Below, one piece after another: positions 3,407-41,992 of a DNA stretch of 51,596 bases. The stretch is from the IMG/VR virus record IMGVR_UViG_2718218098_000003; one strand, given 5' to 3'. The notes under the pieces are model-generated. The model had not been told where the DNA came from, searched no databases, and saw nothing but the letters and a program-made list of their open reading frames with translations. Both the position numbers and the translations under genes were made by a program. Every line of letters starts with the position of its first letter. Positions within the stretch are counted from its first letter, which is position 1. Origin of the DNA: a virus. Lineage: Duplodnaviria > Heunggongvirae > Uroviricota > Caudoviricetes.

Positions 3407-6032
3407 TTGCATACTCCTTAGCCCAGCGGGGCAGTGATAACGTTTTAATAGCTGGCCATTCATCGGTATTCAGGCAGTCAGCCAGGGTCCTCAGATTGCG
3501 GTGATATTCCTGCTGGCCTGCCAGTTTTGCTTCTTCGCCCATCATGAAAATCTCAACCGGGTAACGTCCGCATTCAACAGTTGTGCTGGCAACCAGAAAA
3601 ACGAAAGTTGGCAGCACGCCAAACTGTGCTTCATAACCGTCACTGTAGAATGCATCCTGAACGTGATAGCGGTAGTCGTAATAAGCCGTTTTGAATCGTT
3701 GAATATCCGCTGTGGTTTTCACGTCCATGATCCAGTGAAATTCAGGAATAATTTTGTCCGGACGGCACCGACACAAAATTCCTGTTTCCGGATCTTCCCA
3801 GTAAATTGATGATTCAGCGTGTCCGGCGCTTTCAACAAGCCATTGCCCCAGCGGCAAAGCCATAACGCTTTGATACATGAGTTCAATTTTCCGGCCTTCT
3901 TCCGCAGTGATAACCGTTTTTCCTGTGCTTGCGCATTCCATCAGAAACGCTTTCTCTTCTTCTTTTCCGGCGTTTGTACGGCGGTTAAATTCAGGTGCTA
4001 CGATAAAGCGGTTACTGAATTCTTCCGGTTCAAGTACCCGGCAGTGGAAAGCGGTTCCTAAATCGAGCGTTTTTGTCTTTGTGGTGTCCACGGGGGCATT
4101 TTTACGCCACAAATACAGTGCCGGAGTATCAGCAATGTCATCGAGCTGAGACTTACTGACACCGGGACCCGCGTGGTAATTCTCATTCGAAATTCCGTAA
4201 TAAATACCTGGCTCTATGTCTTCTACGATTACGGGATCTGCGACTTCGCCAGTTTCATCACTGCAATCGCGATGCGGATCGCTGCCAGCATTCTCATTGT
4301 GCGGATGTTCAGCGCCTTCCATTTCCTCCGGATCTTTTTCCTTAGCTTCAACCTGATTCTCTTCACCGAATGTTTCCTGGTATGTTGCGTCGCCCATCAC
4401 CGCACCACAGTCAGGGCAGTTATCCCCGCCAGTCTGACCGCAGGCATTGCAGACTATTTCCGGTTCCTGTTGCACTACTGGCTCAGGTTGTTTCGCATCC
4501 GGGCTGATTTTTTCCGTTTCTGGCTGGTTCTGGTACACAGAATCGCGAGTCTGGATCCCCTTAACCCATTTCGGATCGTTCGGGTCGCTAATCCCTTCAA
4601 CAAATTCTCCGCGAGAGGCAGCCAGTAATTTGTCTGCATCGACAGGATTTTTGGGCGGAATGTTTTTCCGGGCTTCATGGAGTTCTGCCCGCAGTTTCTG
4701 ATATTTCGCATCAACAGAATTTACCTGTGACTGAGCATCCAGCGACTGCGTGTCCTGATGATGTTCAGTTGCATCCGGTTCCACTGTTTCAGCCGTTGCC
4801 TGTTCATCTGCCATTGCGCAAGATGGTTGCAGTTTTTCTTCATCATCCTGTTTTTCTTCTTCTGTTACACGCTGCGGCATCGGGGCAGAGGAACGACCGC
4901 AGGCAATATCCACGATTTCTGGATCAGGGTTGGCATGATCAGTTTCAGTCAGTACTTTGTTCAGATATTCAGTGACGTGTGCGGGGATAACCTCGATCCC
5001 AATTGGTGCTTCTTTTACGGACGCAACCACGATGGCGCGGGAATAATCCAGCCCACCAGGCATGGTGATGAATTTGTCGCGGAAAACAGAAAAGGGTGGT
5101 TTATTTTCAGCGATAATTTCCTCGACACGTTTAGCGTGTGCCGGATGAAGGTTATAAATGTCCACGTCCATTGAACGAGCCAGTACGCCAGTGGCTACGT
5201 CGCGCGCCAGTGACGTCAGATCGTGAACGAAACCTTCGCCGCGATCGGTGAGGTTCCCGCCGCCAGCATTAGCGCCGGAAGCCGTGCGCGTGATGCGTGA
5301 AACACGATTTCCTTTCATCCACTCTTTTGTCAGCAGACCGCGATCGGTGTAGTCTGCGTCCAGGTATGCTTCGAAAAAAGCAGTCATCAGCCCCAGGCTT
5401 GAATTGCCTGGATTAGGGAAAACTCTGTCAGTATCACGCACCAGTTTGTGGAGATCGCGAATTTCCAGCGGGTCGAGCAGGCTGGTTTTGTGGGAAACAG
5501 CCAGGGCAGTAACAGCTGGTAGTTCTTCAGCTCGTGCAATGTGTAATGCCTGTAGTTCGTCGCGTGAAACGTGCGTTACCGGTTTTTCGCTGCCGTGTTG
5601 AGCAAGCCAGCGAATGGGCAGCTCCTGACCGGAAATCGGGAGTAGCATATTCTCCTCAATCTCCGTCATGTCTTCGCCATTAACATTGGTATTGTCAGTG
5701 CTGGCTGGTTTGTCCTGCGCAGAGGATGAGGGCGCGATAAATACCATTGTGATGCCATCTTCCCCGCCTTTTTCGTAACGGTTGCAGAATTCCGTATCAA
5801 ATACGCCTTCTGGTGGAAGGTCATCAACAACGGGCAAATTGACGCGAACAGGTTTTTTAAAGTCATCTTCATCGTAGCCAGCATCGTCAATCGCAACAGC
5901 ACCACGGGAGATGGCAATGGATAATTTTTTCGCTTCAGCCCAGTAGAAACCGCCTTTAATACCGAGACGTTTTCTTACTTTGTCATTTTTTGCTTCGTAA
6001 TACAGTGGGTAAACTTGTTTATCGGTGCTCAT
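3399..6032 (-). CDS. recE: Exodeoxyribonuclease VIII (RecE)
   Basis: 877-aa [39 protein letters not shown]... matches recalled RecE; immediately upstream of recT. Confidence 0.9.
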
Positions 6033-9334: not shown

Positions 9335-10465
9335 ATGGCTTCAAACTGGATAAAGCTCGAGGTTATTACGCCGGATAAGCCGGAAATATTCAGGCTTGCT
9401 GAGATTCTGAATATTGATCCAGATGCCGCATTAGGGAAGGTTATTCGCTTCTGGGCATGGGCGGATCAACAAATGATAGACGGTAATGCAGATTGTAACG
9501 CTCGCGGCGTTACAAAAAGTGCAATAGATCGCATTACTTTTATGGCTGGTTTTGCTGATGCGTTAATTCAGGTTGGATGGCTGGTCGAAAATGACGGTGG
9601 GCTTTCTCTACCTAACTTTGAACGTCATAACGGGAAAAGCTCTAAAAAACGGGCGGTTACAAACGAGCGAGTTACAAAAATACGCGAACTGAAACGAAAA
9701 GGTAACGCTGCCAGCGTTACACAAAGGGATCAAAAAGCGTTACCAGAGGAAGAGGAAGAGGAAGATATAAATACTGATCTAACCCATCCCAAACCCTTCC
9801 CTTCCGGAAGGGAGTTCCGGGATTTTGTGGCGGGAGTGCTTGAGGGGAGATTATCTGGCGGTACTGCAGCGGAATTTTGTAATTCTGCGGTGGTTGCGTT
9901 GCAGGCTGCTGGCCTGGATGTCTGTCGTGAGTATCCGGTGCCAGAGCGTGGTGACGGTTGCGGAGGGCGGATTGATATCGTCGTGACTGACAGGAACGGT
10001 GTCCGGTGTGGGATCGAGCTTGACCGAAATTCTCCGCGACAGAAATCACTGCTCAAAATCGGTGCTGTTGAAACCGGGATATGTGTCTTGCGGCGCAGTG
10101 ATATCGCAAGGCACACCGAGCAGGGAATTCTGGTTATCGGTGGGGCTGTTCGCCAGAAAAAATTTGACCCGTTGTCAGTTGATCTGCCCGACTGGTTGCC
10201 AGAAACACTCTGGCATGAGTGGGTCCAGTTCAGGCAGGCATTGCGAAAACCGATTCGAACGGAGCAGGGCGCTAACGGGGCGATACGGGAGCTGGAAAAA
10301 TTCCGCCAGCAGGGTTTTACACCTGAGCAGGTGATTCGACACAGTATCGCCAATGAATACCAGGGCCTGTTCGCGCCGAAAGGTGTTCGGCCTGAGACGT
10401 TGCTCCGACAGGTTAACACCGTCTCGTTGCCGGACAGTGCGATCCCGCCAGGCTTCAGGGGGTAA
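9335..10465 (+). CDS. Phage replication initiator / replisome organiser with an extra central domain
   Basis: N-terminus WIKLEVITPDKPEIFRLAEILNIDPDAALGKVIRFWAWADQQ resembles replisome-organiser N-domain; followed by DnaC-like loader; central ~100 aa RIDIVVTD...GIELD looks nuclease-like. Confidence 0.6.
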   Translation: MASNWIKLEVITPDKPEIFRLAEILNIDPDAALGKVIRFWAWADQQMIDGNADCNARGVTKSAIDRITFMAGFADALIQVGWLVENDGGLSLPNFERHNGKSSKKRAVTNERVTKIRELKRKGNAASVTQRDQKALPEEEEEEDINTDLTHPKPFPSGREFRDFVAGVLEGRLSGGTAAEFCNSAVVALQAAGLDVCREYPVPERGDGCGGRIDIVVTDRNGVRCGIELDRNSPRQKSLLKIGAVETGICVLRRSDIARHTEQGILVIGGAVRQKKFDPLSVDLPDWLPETLWHEWVQFRQALRKPIRTEQGANGAIRELEKFRQQGFTPEQVIRHSIANEYQGLFAPKGVRPETLLRQVNTVSLPDSAIPPGFRG

Positions 10466-10471
10466 CAGACC

Positions 10472-13520: not shown

Positions 13521-14541
13521 ATGAAATATACACCGGTTGGCGTTGATATCGCAAAACATCTGATTCAGGTTCACTTCATTGATGAGAACACAGGTGAAGT
13601 GGTGGATAAGCAACTTCGTGGCAGAGATTTTCTTGAATATTTCAGCAACCGGGAACCCTGCCTGATTGGTATGGAGGCCTGTGGAGGCTCTCAGCACTGG
13701 GCACGGGAGCTGACAAAGCTGGGGCATAACGTCCGCTTGTTACAGGCCCGCTTCGTTAAGGCATTCGTCATGGGAAACAAGAACGACGTGATGGATGCCC
13801 GGGCTATCTGGATGGCGGTTCAGCAGCCCGGTAAAGAAATTGCCGTCAAAACAGAAGAACAGCAGTCGGTACTGGTTCTGCACCGTACCCGCATGCAACT
13901 GGTGAAGTTCCGGACCGCACAAATTAACGCCCTACACGGGACGTTACTGGAGTTTGGTGAAACCATCCACAAAGGTCGGGCAGCAATGGAGCGGGAGTTC
14001 CCTGAAGCACTGGAACGAATGAAAGAGAGACTGCCACCGTATCTCATCACGGTACTGGAAAACCAGTATAAGCGGGTTGAATGAGCTGGACTCCCTGATA
14101 GAAGACATCGAAAAACAGCTTGCCAGCGTGGCGAAACAGAATGAGACCTGTAAGCGGTTGCTGGATATTCCTGGTGTTGGGCCACTTATTGCGACGGCAG
14201 CGGTGGCCACCATGGGGGAAGCATCAGCGTTTAAATCAGGGCGAGAGTTCGCGGCTTATGTTGGTCTGGTGCCCAAACAGACTGGCTCAGGAGGGAAAAT
14301 TCGCCTGCTGGGGATAAGCAAACGTGGTGATACATATCTGCGAACCCTGTTTATTCATGGCGCAAGGGCGGCAGCATTACTGACTAAAGAACCTGGTCCG
14401 TGGATAACCGAACTGAAAAAACGTCGTCCAGCCAGTGTGGCTATCGTCGCCATGGCAAACAAGCTGGCACGAACAGTATGGGCGATAGCTGCCCATGACC
14501 GTAAGTATGACAGGAACCATGTCAGTATCAGACCATATTAA
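13521..14541 (+). pseudogene. IS110-family recombinase/transposase, interrupted by a +1 frameshift near 14075-14080
   Basis: ORFs 13521-14084 and 14077-14541 together read as one ~340-aa protein (...LENQYKRV / NELDSLIEDIEK...); single extra base in cgggttgaatgag. Confidence 0.65.
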
Positions 14542-15812: not shown

Positions 15813-15899
15813 AAACGGTTTGCGGGAAAAGGAGAGTTAAGTAGAATTGCTGCGGGTGCTTGAGGCTATCTGCCTCAGGCATGAACACCAACGGCAGAT

Positions 15900-15990
15900 A
15901 GAGAAAAGCCCCAGTTAACATTACGCGTCTTGCAGGACGCTTAACATTAATCTGAGGCCCAATCTATGTCTCACAAATGTAGGTTAGCCT
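15900..15990 (-). ncRNA. Candidate Sok-type antisense RNA region (not delimited)
   Basis: Placement inferred from hok/sok architecture; no promoter or terminator resolved. Confidence 0.2.
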
Positions 15991-16022
15991 CTTACGTGCC
16001 GAAAGGCAAGGAGAAGCAGGCT

Positions 16023-16178
16023 ATGAAGCAGCAAAAGGCGATGTTAATCGCCCTGATCGTCATCTGTTTAACCGTCATAGTGACGGCACTGGTAACGAGG
16101 AAAGACCTCTGCGAGGTACGAATCCGAACCGGCCAGACGGAGGTCGCTGTCTTCACAGCTTACGAACCTGAGGAGTAA
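16023..16178 (+). CDS. hok: Hok/Gef-family type I toxin (HokD/RelF-like)
   Basis: 51-aa MKQQKAMLIALIVICLTVIVTALVTRKDLCEVRIRTGQTEVAVFTAYEPEE; SD aaggag; in-frame upstream extension from 15966 (mok-like). Confidence 0.85.
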   Translation: MKQQKAMLIALIVICLTVIVTALVTRKDLCEVRIRTGQTEVAVFTAYEPEE

Positions 16179-19232: not shown

Positions 19233-19307
19233 GGCCCTTTAGCTCAGTGGTGAGAGCGAGCGACTCATAATCGCCAGGTCGCTGGTTCAAATCCAGCAAG
19301 GGCCACC
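19233..19307 (+). tRNA. tRNA-Ile (anticodon CAU, lysidine-type; ileX/ileZ-like)
   Basis: Cloverleaf read by hand; anticodon loop ctCATaa; close to recalled E. coli ileX. Confidence 0.8.
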
Positions 19308-19309
19308 TG

Positions 19310-19386
19310 TCGTCACTAGCTCACCTGGAAAGAGCATCAACCTTCTAAGTTGAGCGTACGAGGTTCGAGTCCTCGGTGGCGGTCCA
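19310..19386 (+). tRNA. tRNA-Arg (anticodon UCU)
   Basis: Anticodon loop ctTCTaa, T-loop ttcgagt, CCA encoded. Confidence 0.65.
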
Positions 19387-19388
19387 GT

Positions 19389-19464
<76 letters not shown>

Positions 19465-19467
19465 TAT

Positions 19468-19542
<75 letters not shown>

Positions 19543-20313
19543 GCATTTGAAACAAGCCTTATTGTATTGCGGCACTGGCGCATTTTTTTATTACGTGGGA
19601 GCAGGTTGTTTTGAAAAAGCATTCTGTTCTCTGGCTATGATTTGAGGCCGGGTGTAGCCTCAGTGCTGATTTTTTACGGCAGCAGAATGGTGCATTATCG
19701 GTGGAGATTTTGTATTTCCTGGCAGGGGCGGTGATGCATCATTTTGGTGTTGTAAAAGCACCGCAGAGGCGTTCCTCAGGGCGAGGGTGGTTTAAATAGT
19801 CGGTTTAGCGGGAAACCACAGTATCCATACAGCACGGAATACTTCGGGAGATACCCGACGCCTCGGTTTACTATAATAAAGACGAAGCATCCTTTGTATT
19901 GACAAACCGCCTGCTTAGACGGTTCTTTTTTGGCTGGTTTATTGTATGCCAAATCATTATTGAAAGGACTGTATTAATAACAAAATCCGAAATAATATGC
20001 CTGCATATTGTTAGTTTTCTTATGCTTTTTGTATATTGCTGCACCGCAGCCCCCCCTGCAACGAAAGTTGTATGATGAATAATTTTTATTTTTTCCTTTT
20101 CCAGTCATCTGAGGATGCTGGCTTCTTTTAGCTCCGGCCCGACAATACGGGGATATCACGTCAGGGGATGAAGGAATTAATTGCGTTGCCGGGGAAGCAT
20201 CGTCAGCTTTTTTAAGATAACTCCTGTGTGTTATGTGCATAAATGCTACAAACTCCACATTTTATGTGGTTGGGAGTTGCCGGGCGCGCAGTGAGTTTGC
20301 TAAGAAAACTCCT

Positions 20314-20415
20314 GCATGGTGAATCCCCCTGTGCGGTGGGGTGATACCATTAACTTTTTTGTCGCCGACAGGTATCACGAACGTTTTGTTCACCGGGAGG
20401 CACCCGGCACCATGC
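20314..20415 (+). other. Structured repeat element copy A (conserved 5' and 3' boxes, variable internal helix)
   Basis: gcatggtgaatccccctgtgcggtgggg...gtgatacc/ggtatcac...caccgggaggcacccggcaccatgc. Confidence 0.6.
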
Positions 20416-20580
20416 ACTTCAATAGATTCTCTCCACATTATTGATATTCTTTCAGAATATCCCACACAGACTTTGTGTAAATGTTAACGAATGTGCGTTT
20501 TATTTGATCTAATCCGCTGTTTGAGCGTTCAAAACAACGGTATATGTAATCCTTTACTATATGACATATTGTGAGGAAAA

Positions 20581-21009
20581 ATGGGTTTTCGTAGCGCATC
20601 AACTCTTACGTTGATTGCTGGTGGGATTATTGTCGGATGCACTGATGCTGTGTCGACAAATTATTACGACCGGGCATCATATTACTCCGATAAATCAACA
20701 GAGACACAGTATGTGAGTTCATCTGAACGTACTACTGATGTTAGTGAAGATATCCGTCAGTATGCCCATCAAATCAAGAACGCCATCGAAAAACAGTTCG
20801 GGGATGCGAGTAAGTATTCAGGAAAAGAGTGTACGCTTAGCATGCATATGGCCCCGAATGGCCTTCTACTGGAGGTTAAAAGAGAAAGTGGAGACCTCGA
20901 TTTATGTCGTGAAGCGATGAATGCGATAAAGAATGCTGATATACCAGCGCCGCCGTCTCCGGAAGTATATAAAGTATTTCACAATGGAGTGCTGGATTTT
21001 AAACCGTGA
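20581..21009 (+). CDS. Lipoprotein with TolA C-terminal (domain III)-like domain
   Basis: 142 aa; lipobox IIVGC after MGFRSASTLTLIAGG; C-terminus YAHQIKNAIEKQFGDASKYSGKECTL...EVYKVFHNGVLDFKP resembles recalled TolA C-terminus; SD gagga. Confidence 0.65.
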   Translation: MGFRSASTLTLIAGGIIVGCTDAVSTNYYDRASYYSDKSTETQYVSSSERTTDVSEDIRQYAHQIKNAIEKQFGDASKYSGKECTLSMHMAPNGLLLEVKRESGDLDLCREAMNAIKNADIPAPPSPEVYKVFHNGVLDFKP

Positions 21010-21207
21010 TTCTACATCTTTGCAGTAAACAATAATCATAATTGCATGTTTTTTCTGTGGTGGGGTATTTGGCTTCTGTTGCCTGCGATGTATTGTGGAG
21101 CTGGTATCAGCCTGCAGAAAATGCACACAGGTGTGAAGTGTTAAATTCCACACAACTCAGAACGCAGAATGTTGTCCTGCTTGCGGGGAGTTTGTTAAAA
21201 GAGTACT

Positions 21208-21329
21208 GCATGGTGAATCCTCATGAGCGGAGGGGCATAATGACAGATGTTTGGTCGCGTTATCGTATAGGCAAGTTGCGGATTCTGTCTGGTCATTGCA
21301 GAATTCACCGGGAGGCACCCGGCACCATG
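21208..21329 (+). other. Structured repeat element copy B
   Basis: gcatggtgaatcctcatgagcggagggg...aatgac/gtcatt...caccgggaggcacccggcaccatg. Confidence 0.6.
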
Positions 21330-21460
21330 TATTTTCAATATTTTATTGATTATTCTCTTTTTCGGAATACTCTGGTTATGTTTTCCTGTAACTGATAATT
21401 AAATCACATTTTGTGTAAATGTATATTGTCTGAACGGGATAAGTTCAGTATCTTCTGAAT

Positions 21461-21584
21461 GTATGGCGAATCCCCCTGTGCGGCGGGGCGTACTGATTTA
21501 AGTAGTCATCCAAGAATGCAGCTGAATGAAAACGCGCTCCATATTAATCAGTGGTGGAGCACCGGGAGGCACCCGGCGCCATAC
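21461..21584 (+). other. Structured repeat element copy C (compensatory changes in closing helix)
   Basis: gtatggcgaatccccctgtgcggcgggg...actgatt/aatcagt...caccgggaggcacccggcgccatac. Confidence 0.6.
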
Positions 21585-21610
21585 CGATGATGAAAATAAA
21601 TGCGTCCATC

Positions 21611-21636
21611 AGCCCCTCTCCGGAGGGGCTTTTTTA
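21611..21636 (+). terminator. Intrinsic terminator
   Basis: agcccctctccggaggggcttttt. Confidence 0.65.
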
Positions 21637-21641
21637 TGGGC

Positions 21642-21672
21642 AAAAAAAGCCCGCTACGAATGGTAACGGGCT
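21642..21672 (-). terminator. Minus-strand intrinsic terminator (back-to-back with 21611-21636)
   Basis: Plus strand aaaaaaagcccgctacgaatggtaacgggct. Confidence 0.45.
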
Positions 21673-21817
21673 GCACAAAATAACAAAATGTGAAGTATTC
21701 TAATCAGCCGCTGAATAATACCCGACAGTAATTAATCTGTGCAACGGCGCTTTTTCCCGCCTTGCAGGCACCGACTCTCTCATTTGATTTAACGCATTAT
21801 CCCGTCCGGGAGGGTTC

Positions 21818-22399
21818 ATGACATTTAAATATTATGATGTGGTTTCGGCCAGAACAACTGATGAATTAAAGCGGAAACTGAACGAAAAAATCCGTGAAGG
21901 ATGGCAGCCTTATGAAACAATATCTGTTTCATCTGTGAGTGGTACTGAAGACATATATCATCAGCCAGTTGCTGCTGAGGGGGAGGTGAGTACGCCGGTG
22001 ATACGTCCTGATGCAGGTGATGATTCATCTGTGGCTGTCTCCGGATCGCCTGATTATTACTACGTGGTGGTACTGGCGGGGCAGTCAAATGGCATGACCT
22101 ATGGTGAAGGGCTTCCGTTACCGGATTCATTTGACCGCCCGGACCCACGGATTAAGCAACTGGCACGCCGCAGCACGGTCACGCCAGGCGGTACGACGTG
22201 TAAATACAATGACATCATTCCGGCAGACCACTGCCTGCATGATGTGCAGGACATGAGCGGGATAAACCACCCGAAAGCTGACCTGAACAAGGGGCAGTAT
22301 GGTTGTGTGAGTCAGGGGCTGCATATTGCCAAAAAACTGCTGCCTTATATCCCGCAGAATGCCGGGATACTTCTGGTGCCCTGTTGCCGTGGCGGCTGA
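21818..22399 (+). pseudogene. Truncated nanS-p-type sialate O-acetylesterase (N-terminal part only)
   Basis: 193 aa; VVVLAGQSNGMTYGEGLPLP is the start of an SGNH/SASA esterase domain; full-length relatives recalled as >600 aa; SD ggagg. Confidence 0.55.
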
Positions 22400-22475
22400 A
22401 AAAATCAGTGCCGGTCAGTCAGCAGAGCCAAAGTCCACGTCCCTCCCGTAATCACATCTCACAGCGAGAAAAACC

Positions 22476-22781
22476 ATGACAGAAATGAAAAAACTGGTCA
22501 CTGCTGATGCAGTGAGATCTGCGCTGCGCACTGAAGAAGTCCGCGGGACGCTGAAAGCATCTATCCGTAAAACGTTTGAGGCTCAGATTGATGCTGATGT
22601 GGAAGCGATTCTGGATGAGCTTACCGGACCTGCTGAGGGGGCATCTGCGCCACAGGCAGGGGATGGTGAGAATACGGCAGATTCTCCGGTGGAAAACAGC
22701 AGCGAACAACCTGAGGCACAACCCGGTGGTGAGGAACAAGCAAATGATGTTCTGCAGCCGGAACCAGCAACCATGTTGTGA
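22476..22781 (+). CDS. Hypothetical acidic protein upstream of holin
   Basis: 101-aa ORF, acidic Pro/Glu-rich C-terminus. Confidence 0.4.
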   Translation: MTEMKKLVTADAVRSALRTEEVRGTLKASIRKTFEAQIDADVEAILDELTGPAEGASAPQAGDGENTADSPVENSSEQPEAQPGGEEQANDVLQPEPATML

Positions 22782-22858
22782 TACATGACGCACAGGCCAC
22801 CAGCATATCGCGGTGGTCTTTTGTTATCGTGCACTTCCGGTGAACGGGAGGCGGAGAT

Positions 22859-23074
22859 ATGTACCAGATGGAAAAAATCACAACAGGTGTGTCATACACC
22901 ACGTCTGCGGTGGGGACGGGATACTGGTTTCTGCAGTTGCTGGACAGGGTATCCCCGTCTCAGTGGGCGGCAATAGGCGTGCTGGGGAGTCTGCTGTTTG
23001 GTCTGCTGACATACCTGACGAACCTGTATTTCAAAATTAAAGAAGACCGACGCAAGGCGGCGCGGGGAGAGTAG
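22859..23074 (+). CDS. S: Pinholin (phage 21 S-type holin), dual start at 22859 and 22868
   Basis: [71 protein letters not shown] resembles recalled S21. Confidence 0.8.
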
Positions 23075-23077
23075 GTG

Positions 23078-23629
23078 ATGAAAAAACAATACGAACTGGT
23101 TGTTAAAGGGATAAATAATTACGGGGATAAGGTTACTGTTACTGTGAAGCCGGAAGGTGACGGGCAAGCGTCGCTGTTGTCGCAATATGTGGTGATTGAT
23201 CTTGATCGTGTTGAAGGTGCCCCGCTGGAGTGTTACGAAGCTGAGGCGAAAAAGCAGGCGAAGCAGTTTTTCATGGATGTAGCTGCCGGGTTATGTGGAG
23301 GGGATGAGCAGTCGCCGGAAAAGCGCCCCATAATTTTAGAGGCGCAGAATGTGTGGATAACCTACAGAGGAAAACTACCGGGAAGAATTACTGGTTCTCT
23401 GAAGACGCCACCGACGGCATTGCGGTCAGAAAAAGATGATATTGAATCGCTCATTGAAAAACTGGAGGGCAGCGTCGCTGATCTGAATAAAAAATTGTCG
23501 GTGCTGATTCCTTCTGAAGATGAAAAAAAACGCCGCGATGAGCAGTTTGCGGCGTTTTACGATTATTGCATTGAAGTTACTCGCAGGAATTTTGTGAAGA
23601 TCTTTGAGGAGGGTAAATCTCTTCAGTAA
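23078..23629 (+). CDS. Hypothetical protein inserted between holin and endolysin
   Basis: 184 aa; start abuts holin stop; no motif recognised. Confidence 0.45.
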   Translation: MKKQYELVVKGINNYGDKVTVTVKPEGDGQASLLSQYVVIDLDRVEGAPLECYEAEAKKQAKQFFMDVAAGLCGGDEQSPEKRPIILEAQNVWITYRGKLPGRITGSLKTPPTALRSEKDDIESLIEKLEGSVADLNKKLSVLIPSEDEKKRRDEQFAAFYDYCIEVTRRNFVKIFEEGKSLQ

Positions 23630-23837
23630 GCTTAATGGCGGACGCTGCAATTAATTCAGGAAGGTCCGCAAGGCCATCTGTCAGTGGATATGATGAAAAA
23701 TCGGCGGCAGTTCTGTTAAGAAGCGCTTTAACTAATTCCTTTTCCTTTTCCGGCAACAAGTTGATTAGAGCTACGACTGCTTGCCTGAGTGCGATTAAAT
23801 CAGCAAAAGTTTGTTTTGGTAGATTTGTGTAATCCAT
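23577..23837 (-). CDS. Hypothetical small protein, convergent with and overlapping 23078-23629
   Basis: 86 aa from MDYTNLPKQTFADLIALRQ...; SD agaggtg upstream of ATG 23837. Confidence 0.4.
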   Translation of the reverse strand: MDYTNLPKQTFADLIALRQAVVALINLLPEKEKELVKALLNRTAADFSSYPLTDGLADLPELIAASAIKLTEEIYPPQRSSQNSCE

Positions 23838-23951
23838 AGTCACCTCTGTGTTTATCAGATTGACATCCTCCTCCCGCCAGTGCCCATCACTGGCGAGGTA
23901 AGATTTAACATATCCGGGGGATTTGAAGCCGATAAATCCTGATAAATATCC

Positions 23952-40678: not shown

Positions 40679-41422
40679 ATGACACAGACAGAATCAGCGA
40701 TTCTGGCGCACGCCCGGCGATGTGCGCCAGCGGAGTCGTGCGGCTTCGTGGTAAGCACGCCGGAGGGGGAAAGATATTTCCCCTGCGTGAATATCTCCGG
40801 TGAGCCGGAGGCGTATTTCCGTATGTCGCCGGAAGACTGGCTGCAGGCAGAAATGCAGGGTGAGATTGTGGCGCTGGTCCACAGCCACCCCGGTGGTCTG
40901 CCCTGGCTGAGTGAGGCCGACCGGCGGCTGCAGGTACAGAGTGATTTGCCGTGGTGGCTGGTCTGCCGGGGGGCGATTCATAAATTCCGCTGTGTGCCGC
41001 ATCTCACCGGGCGGCGCTTTGAGCACGGGGTGACGGACTGTTACACGCTGTTCCGGGACGCTTACCATCTGGCGGGAATTGAGATGCCGGATTTTCATCG
41101 CGGGGATGACTGGTGGCGTCACGGCCAGAATCTCTATCTGGATAATCTGGAGGCCACAGGGCTGTATCAGGTGCCGTTGTCATCAGCACAACCGGGCGAT
41201 GTGCTGCTGTGCTGTTTTGGTTCATCGGTGCCGAATCATGCCGCCATTTACTGTGGTGACGGCGGGCTGCTGCACCATATTCCTGAACAACTGAGCAAAC
41301 GAGAGAGGTATACCGACAAATGGCAGCGACGCACACACTCCCTCTGGCGTCACCGGGCATGGCGCGCATCTGCCTTTACGGGGATTTACAACGATTTGGC
41401 CGCCGCATCGACCTTCGTGTGA
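40679..41422 (+). CDS. K: Tail tip assembly protein K (MPN/JAB + NlpC/P60-like)
   Basis: 247 aa; HSHPGG JAB-type motif; lambda gpK-like. Confidence 0.85.
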   Translation: MTQTESAILAHARRCAPAESCGFVVSTPEGERYFPCVNISGEPEAYFRMSPEDWLQAEMQGEIVALVHSHPGGLPWLSEADRRLQVQSDLPWWLVCRGAIHKFRCVPHLTGRRFEHGVTDCYTLFRDAYHLAGIEMPDFHRGDDWWRHGQNLYLDNLEATGLYQVPLSSAQPGDVLLCCFGSSVPNHAAIYCGDGGLLHHIPEQLSKRERYTDKWQRRTHSLWRHRAWRASAFTGIYNDLAAASTFV

Positions 41423-41992
41423 AAACGGGGGCTGAAGCTATCCGCGCACTGGCCACACAGCTCCCGGCGTTTCGTCAGAAACTGAGCAACGGCTGGTATC
41501 AGGTACGGATTGCCGGGCGGGACGTCAGCACGTCCGGGTTAACGGCGCAGTTACATGAGACTCTGCCTGATGGCGCTGTGATTCATATTGTTCCCAGAGT
41601 CGCCGGGGCCAAGTCAGGTGGCGTATTCCAGATTGTCCTGGGGGCTGCCGCCATTGCCGGATCATTCTTTACCGCCGGAGCCACCCTTGCAGCATGGGGG
41701 GGCAGCCATTGGGGCCGGTGGTATGACCGGCATCCTGTTTTCTCTCGGTGCCAGTATGGTGCTCGGTGGTGTGGCGCAGATGCTGGCACCGAAAGCCAGA
41801 ACTCCCCGTACACAGACAACGGATAACGGTAAGCAGAACACCTATTTCTCCTCACTGGATAACATGGTTGCCCAGGGCAATGTTCTGCCTGTTCTGTACG
41901 GGGAAATGCGCGTGGGGTCACGCGTGGTTTCTCAGGAGATCAGCACGGCAGACGAAGGGGACGGTGGTCAGGTTGTGGTGATTGGTCGCTGA
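41320..41992 (+). pseudogene. I: Tail assembly protein I, disrupted by +1 frameshift in a G7 tract (41696-41702)
   Basis: ORFs 41320-41826 and 41588-41992 join into one gpI-like protein if one G is removed. Confidence 0.6.

Follow-up and report, generated by a model that had tools for sequence, protein, structure and literature searches.

What became of the sialate O-acetylesterase gene among the late genes of this prophage, and does the short reading frame that is left still serve the phage? The window, by which we mean the whole stretch of 51,596 nucleotides that was analysed, contains a Rac-like lambdoid prophage adjoining yebY. It runs from integrase, recET, ralR and kil through a replication region and hokD/sok to a DUF1133 gene (antiterminator Q family), four tRNAs and a gene with a TolA C-terminal domain that is flanked by STnc100 elements. 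A truncated nanS-p gene comes next, followed by DUF826, holin, lysozyme, Rz and lambda-like head and tail genes. By gene order and Rfam, the truncated gene sits where a nanS-p gene belongs, between the antiterminator/tRNA/STnc100 region and the lysis cassette. The same slot is used by the nanS-p genes of Stx and other lambdoid prophages, which lie 3′ of the late antiterminator (Q-family/DUF1133), the tRNAs and STnc100, and 5′ of DUF1378, DUF826 and holin. We consider it very probable that the reading frame is a non-functional nanS-p remnant, generated in the late region of a Rac-like lambdoid prophage by one deletion of about 1.63 kb across a short repeat.

The truncated frame (21818..22399, +) has an ATG start and 193 codons followed by TGA, and is the remnant of a DUF1737-SASA-DUF6645 sialate O-acetylesterase of about 647 aa. 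Read directly from the sequence, a Shine-Dalgarno-like GGGAGGG (21808..21814, +) lies 3 nt 5′ of the ATG, and it is conserved with the intact allele of M3, in a stretch (window 21600-22395) that is 98.6% identical between the two. The N-terminal DUF1737 domain (residues 3-52; 21824..21973, +) is the only Pfam domain detected in the 193-aa product, and its score is marginal: PF08410 reaches 24.2 bits at a cut-off of 24, with an envelope of residues 3-39, whereas the intact allele of M3 scores 29.3 bits over residues 3-52. A linker joins it to a partial NanS-type SGNH/SASA esterase domain (residues 77-193; 22046..22396, +), of whose approximately 318 residues the first 117 remain, and which phmmer aligned to chain positions 17-133 of the 337 positions of 3PT5 with E = 3.5e-50. 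A Pfam SASA match was not obtained in the fragment at E <= 0.01. Against the 634-position PHROG profile phrog_143, the whole protein spans positions 1-185.

The initial annotation had read this frame as a nanS-p-type esterase that is truncated soon after the start of its catalytic domain, and had given homologues from Stx-phage late regions more than 600 aa. Both statements are borne out, the first by DUF1737 and the 3PT5 match of residues 77-193, and the second by intact relatives of 644-648 aa that share one architecture (647 aa in M3, 644 aa in M18, 648 aa in the Stx2d phage). In line with these lengths, Stx2a phage NanS-p proteins have been listed at 645 and 643 aa (PMC10462455). The M3 protein (WP_073535060.1, 647 aa, annotated as 'DUF6645 domain-containing protein') is encoded at the same genomic position. 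In it, Pfam finds DUF1737 at residues 3-52 and DUF6645 at residues 496-613, while residues 77-394 align to NanS 3PT5 as the esterase domain and residues 430-646 align to 6YP6, the structure of the NanS-p C-terminal domain. That the short form is a pseudogene is already known from RefSeq/PGAP: on identical sequence in M19, PGAP labels it as a sialate O-acetylesterase pseudogene, incomplete, with the C-terminus missing.

What has been kept of the active site is its beginning. The motif LAGQSNGM occupies residues 86-93 of the 193-aa product. In the alignment to 3PT5, Ser90 in GQSN (codon TCA, 22085..22087, +) is equivalent to the NanS nucleophile Ser19 and Gln89 to the oxyanion-hole Gln18, such that both residues are retained. 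NanS uses Ser19 and His301 as catalytic residues, with Gln18 in the oxyanion hole (PMC9063846). In the M3 protein, the equivalent of His301 is His375 within a SHFSS motif that starts at residue 374 and thus lies beyond the truncation. The complete SGNH/SASA domain expected of a NanS-p is therefore absent from the window product, where Ser90 is present and the catalytic histidine is deleted. The comparison with the chromosomal NanS (YjhS) of E. coli makes the same point: the GQSN nucleophile motif is shared with it, but chromosomal NanS is a complete single-domain esterase with Ser19/His301 (PMC9063846), whereas the fragment stops 182 residues short of the histidine. Because the catalytic histidine and most of the fold are missing, no esterase activity is predicted for the fragment, and we infer from its sequence that it cannot be an esterase.

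The losses extend beyond the active site. Like the NanS-p proteins of Stx and lambdoid prophages (933W NanS-p, phi24B gp84, and the Stx2-phage 'yjhS'), the product starts with DUF1737 and SASA; however, it keeps only 193 of their approximately 645 residues and has lost the histidine, two thirds of the SGNH esterase fold and the lectin-like domain (6YP6/DUF6645) to the deletion. DNA identity to the Stx2d phage gene is about 80% over 22049-22392. The missing part has not merely been displaced: tblastn with the intact 647-aa protein matched residues 1-193 only, with no remnant of residues 194-647 elsewhere in the window, and the C-terminal lectin-like DUF6645 domain was found by Pfam and tblastn neither in the reading frame nor anywhere else in the window.

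How the end was lost can be read from a comparison with the M3 locus, which shares the upstream tolA-like gene and STnc100 copies with the window and whose nanS-p product is identical to the fragment at 189 of 193 residues. On the left flank, window 21600-22395 corresponds to M3 locus (L002) 5001-5796, with 11 of 796 bases differing. On the right flank, window 22382-22900 corresponds to L002 7413-7932 with 95.0% identity (96.2% to M18) and lands inside DUF1378. The offset between the flanks amounts to 1,630 bp in M3 and 1,649 bp in M18. The 1,630 bp that M3 retains and the window lacks comprise nanS-p codons 194-647, a 143-nt spacer and the 5′ part of DUF1378, i.e., about the first 40 of its 58 codons including the hydrophobic N-terminus.

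The two flanks overlap at the deletion junction (22382..22395), where 14 nt fit both parental sites at 12 of 14 bases; nanS-p (codons 189-193) reads TGTTGCCGTGGCGG here, and DUF1378 (codons 37-41) reads TGATGCCATGGCGG. An exact shared repeat, TGGCGG, lies at 22390-22395, and since the window has the nanS-p variant at both mismatches, the crossover is placed within this repeat. By our own calculation, an exact repeat of at least 6 bp would be found at a random junction with a probability of about 0.0013 (about 0.13%). The TGA stop (22397..22399, +) is DUF1378 coding sequence (GCG GCT GAA) read in the nanS-p frame; it is because DUF1378 supplies this codon that the product ends at residue 193 without a foreign tail. 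To the right of the junction, a start-less 3′ remnant of DUF1378, a small membrane-protein gene (phrog_494), is left at 22396..22451 (+), which keeps some 18-20 of the 58 codons at the end of the gene together with its stop; tblastn placed DUF1378 residues 38-58 at 22386-22448, and DUF1378 is intact in both M3 and M18. Rightwards from the deletion, DUF826 (22476..22781, +) is the first gene that is intact, and the holin gene (22859-23074) comes after it.

These features would be explained by a single deletion of about 1.63 kb between the two similar short sequences in nanS-p and DUF1378, which would have taken out nanS-p residues 194-647, the intergenic spacer and some 40 5′ codons of DUF1378, and would have led the nanS-p frame directly into the DUF1378-derived TGA. 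Replication slippage or another illegitimate recombination at short repeats is the likely mechanism, to judge from the junction. An intermolecular illegitimate recombination between two phages and an intramolecular deletion appear indistinguishable here; the best intact relative has 11 mismatches to the window in 796 bases on the left and diverges by about 4-5% on the right.

Could the short frame instead have arisen in sequencing or assembly, through a collapsed repeat or a mis-join that hides a gene of full length? nanS-p occurs in multiple copies and often breaks assemblies, and many of its database homologues are contig-end partials. However, the same junction was found in 10 complete E. 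coli genomes from several laboratories as well as in independent NCBI, ENA, JGI and Logan assemblies. This recurrence argues that the truncation is real, and we regard the chance of an artefact as negligible. Window 21600-22900 is 100% identical in the mouse E. coli isolates M19, M15, M11, M9 and M6, and 99.9% identical in five further mouse isolates.

The truncated allele is also widespread beyond these close relatives. The exact window protein is present on 37 contigs and a variant with Gly33 on 180, such that the allele as a whole is found on more than 200 contigs, and at least 10 193-aa variants that lie 1-5 residues apart are on record. At least four prophage backbones carry it. In the K-12-derived E. 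coli IGC_EcoliInv_1.1, it lies in a prophage that occupies the Rac (intR) site (L006). Draft genomes have it in KingRac-like prophages (L010, L011), L008 is a variant whose Rz is of the DUF2514 type, and L007 is a different phage, which has an antiterminator of the PF03589 type and itself breaks off after the DUF1327 gene. All eight loci compared (the window, L006 and L007-L012) have the identical junction, and since these loci lie in different backbones, this points to one origin of the truncated allele. The allele in L006 and in other mouse, human and Shigella-labelled assemblies has the same junction as the window and differs from it by 0-4 nt over the reading frame, those copies carrying Gly33; PGAP also marks the L006 copy as incomplete. 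Since its origin, the allele has moved together with the tolA-like gene, the STnc100 elements, DUF826 and the holin block into several mosaic prophages, and this carriage indicates that the loss is tolerated. A megablast search of E. coli genomes with the intact M3 gene yielded coverage fractions that reflect mosaic divergence and thus gave no frequency of truncation.

One of these backbones gives the truncation a relative age. Frazão et al. reported that a mouse G2 invader strain swapped its defective Rac prophage at ttcA for the 46.8-kb KingRac, which they found to produce particles on induction and to lysogenise repeatedly in the mouse gut (PMC6731689). From strain name, host and location, we infer that L006 is KingRac. 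As compared to the window, the early region of this KingRac-like prophage is different and its tail gene I is intact. The truncation is thus older than the lesions that are specific to the window prophage, because the identical allele is found in the inferred KingRac, where gene I is intact and the phage is reported to be active.

The initial annotation had offered a different cause, namely that the late-region cargo was decaying or was remodelled by neighbouring structured repeats. Decay is a reasonable description of the prophage as a whole, in which PGAP marks several other lesions. For the repeats, the case is different. There are indeed three similar elements 180-1,500 nt 5′ of the reading frame, which Rfam identifies as STnc100 (RF02076) at 20284-20457, 21179-21383 and 21434-21641 (all +) and which coincide with the direct repeats. 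However, all three are full-length (model positions 1-206 of 206), scoring 80-104 bits where the gathering score is 47, and STnc100 also precedes intact nanS-p genes, with one copy in the Stx2d phage (L001), two in M3 (L002) and four in M18 (L003). The presence of one to four copies before intact nanS-p elsewhere makes a variable-copy array a regular feature of this slot, and according to a 2026 preprint, prophage genes for sialic-acid esterases regularly have STnc100 and PasD-type sRNAs next to them. Furthermore, copies B and C lie within window 20708-22395, a stretch that is colinear with the intact locus of M3. Alignment to full-length homologues, the check that had been proposed, places the breakpoint at 22390-22396, about 750 nt 3′ of copy C (21434-21641); neither deletion endpoint lies in or beside a repeat copy, and the short repeat at the endpoints is unrelated to STnc100. 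We therefore reject recombination among these repeats, or remodelling by them, as the source of the truncation, and give it hardly any probability. This clears the STnc100 elements as its cause, which is relevant to how the repeat array is read.

As observations in their own right, the STnc100 elements bracket the TolA-C-terminal-domain gene, and a strong terminator stands at their end (21611-21630). The bracketed gene (20581-21009, +) encodes a 142-aa protein with the TolA C-terminal domain (Pfam E = 7e-24) and lies between the tRNAs and nanS-p; since it sits where the Stx2d phage L001 carries stx, its position suggests that it is a cargo gene.

Small RNAs were also considered at the junction itself. 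In a 2026 preprint, PasA/PasC are placed between the esterase and holin genes of EPEC and EHEC prophages. We used the 85-nt PasA and its intergenic region, taken from E2348/69 by published coordinates, as BLAST queries. PasA had no homologue in the window, nor in the intact loci of M3, M18 and the Stx2d phage; the match was confined to the holin start, and PasD2 weakly matched STnc100 copy B. The idea that the deletion removed a PasA/PasC sRNA was rejected, since the intact relatives are also without a PasA homologue. On the minus strand, terminator-like hairpins with T-runs are present at 22424-22409 and 22515-22498, in the DUF1378 remnant and the 5′ end of DUF826, and one of them abuts the junction. 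An antisense RNA at this site was dropped as a candidate: the hairpin region (22396-22530, -) folds no better than shuffled sequence (z = -0.26), and both hairpins are conserved in the intact M3 locus.

A short product could also be a gene form in its own right. Among the listed homologues, many have lengths of 150-340 aa, but these are mostly contig-end partials or products of frameshift or fusion whose ends are scattered, and as the protein search listed no full-length relatives, it does not provide a fair distribution of lengths. Within this list, the C-terminal end ...VPCCRGG occurs only in the same deletion allele. A conserved short form of this length, which had been named as the finding that would overturn the truncation, is thus rejected, the 193-aa homologues all representing one deletion allele. 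Other degraded nanS-p genes of E. coli prophages likewise keep DUF1737 and part of SASA, and their ends are unrelated: some run into frameshift tails (P0091, P0111, P0115, P0099), P0063 ends prematurely, and deletions have fused P0072 to Rz and P0075 to tail protein L. These unrelated ends mark independent events, and nanS-p therefore appears to decay repeatedly and independently.

A subtler alternative is that the enzyme was lost but the N-terminal domain was not. Here, the retained DUF1737 would work alone as a capsid-decorating or virion-associated module, the 193-aa frame being a tolerated or even selected short version. The phi24B NanS-p homologue gp84 provides the precedent, since its DUF1737 is reported to stay on the capsid hexons after processing near residues 54-57 (10.64898/2026.04.10.717836), and according to the same preprint, most DUF1737 proteins in Pfam/InterPro have this domain only (10.64898/2026.04.10.717836). 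Two short PHROGs families, phrog_2036 (67 positions) and phrog_9498 (113 positions), match the N-terminus, and in the window the ribosome-binding site is good and both the reading frame and its DUF1737 domain are intact. The presence of the allele on more than 200 contigs and in the inferred KingRac, for which particles and in vivo lysogeny were reported, is also compatible with a product of some use. If this were true, the allele would have spread in mouse-gut prophage backbones by keeping a structural role and dropping the enzyme.

Several points speak against it. The stand-alone DUF1737 capsid-decorating proteins differ from this product, to which 117 residues of an incomplete alpha/beta fold are attached that are unlikely to fold; the broken esterase residues and the adjoining DUF1378 remnant mark it as a deletion product rather than a native short gene. 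Moreover, phi24B is a T=9 podovirus, whereas the window prophage has lambda-like head and tail genes. The persistence of the allele is equally explained by hitch-hiking with an essential lysis cassette.

The substitutions point in the same direction. In the window copy, codon 33 is GAA for glutamate (21914..21916, +) in place of the glycine of KingRac and M3, owing to an A at 21915 (G33E), although all 101 listed homologues with the GWQP[YFW] motif have Gly33. By this comparison, G33E appears as a lineage-specific change at an invariant glycine, later than the truncation, and it may contribute to the DUF1737 score that barely exceeds the cut-off. Among the truncated alleles there are four nonsynonymous changes (G33E, V61L, A53T, G159E) and two synonymous ones, as compared to the three nonsynonymous and five synonymous changes that separate the truncated consensus from the intact M3 allele. 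These counts lean towards relaxed constraint, six changes since the deletion being too few for a selection test. Taken together, we find it improbable that the DUF1737 part is kept as a working module, and just as improbable that a product made from the late operon associates with KingRac-type capsids and has spread as a 'domain-only' derivative of NanS-p.

With the non-functional remnant as the preferred reading, the locus carries little weight alone, being yet another degraded accessory gene of a lambdoid prophage, and one that public annotation already lists as incomplete. What it adds is a clean, base-precise deletion at a short repeat that destroyed two late-region cargo genes together, nanS-p and DUF1378. 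If L006 is KingRac, lacking the esterase and lectin domains of NanS-p, and DUF1378 as well, is compatible with a functional phage; as this lesion sits in a prophage for which activity and transfer in the mouse gut have been reported, these domains and DUF1378 are indicated to be dispensable for the phage life cycle.

The window prophage itself has further damage, and in identical sequence PGAP marks a split ydaU-like gene, an IS110 insertion, a partial YdfR-family gene and a frameshifted tail gene I. At 9336-10466 and 13522-14541, the ydaU-like replication gene lies in two partial pieces and an IS110-family transposase is inserted in the early region; the split gene and the insertion suggest that this prophage copy is degraded. 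In gene I (41419-41992, +), the frameshift is caused by an extra G at 41690-41696, with G7 as compared to G6 in the intact KingRac-type gene, and this homopolymer change could be either a real mutation or a sequencing error.

The lysis cassette harbors a second structural lesion or replacement, which affects the DUF1327/YdfR-family gene after the holin (23075-23629, +). It encodes 184 aa, as compared to 333 aa in L010, L011 and L008, and a 351-bp segment (23570-23920) that bears an 88-aa reverse-strand reading frame (23577-23843) replaces 521 bp of the longer allele and alters the 3′ part of the gene. The annotation of the inferred KingRac has the same partial YdfR-family gene.

Finally, the tRNA content of this region differs between relatives. 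The window has four tandem tRNAs (Ile, Arg, Thr, Gly; 19233-19542, +) 3′ of the DUF1133/Q-family antiterminator gene, while the sets elsewhere are Ile-Arg-Gly in M3, Ile-Lys in M18 and Met-Arg-Arg in the Stx2d phage. Rfam also places SraC/RyeA with SdsR/RyeB at 463-607, at the left prophage border by yebY, the RalA antitoxin sRNA beside ralR at 2169-2347, and sok beside hokD at 15854-16028.
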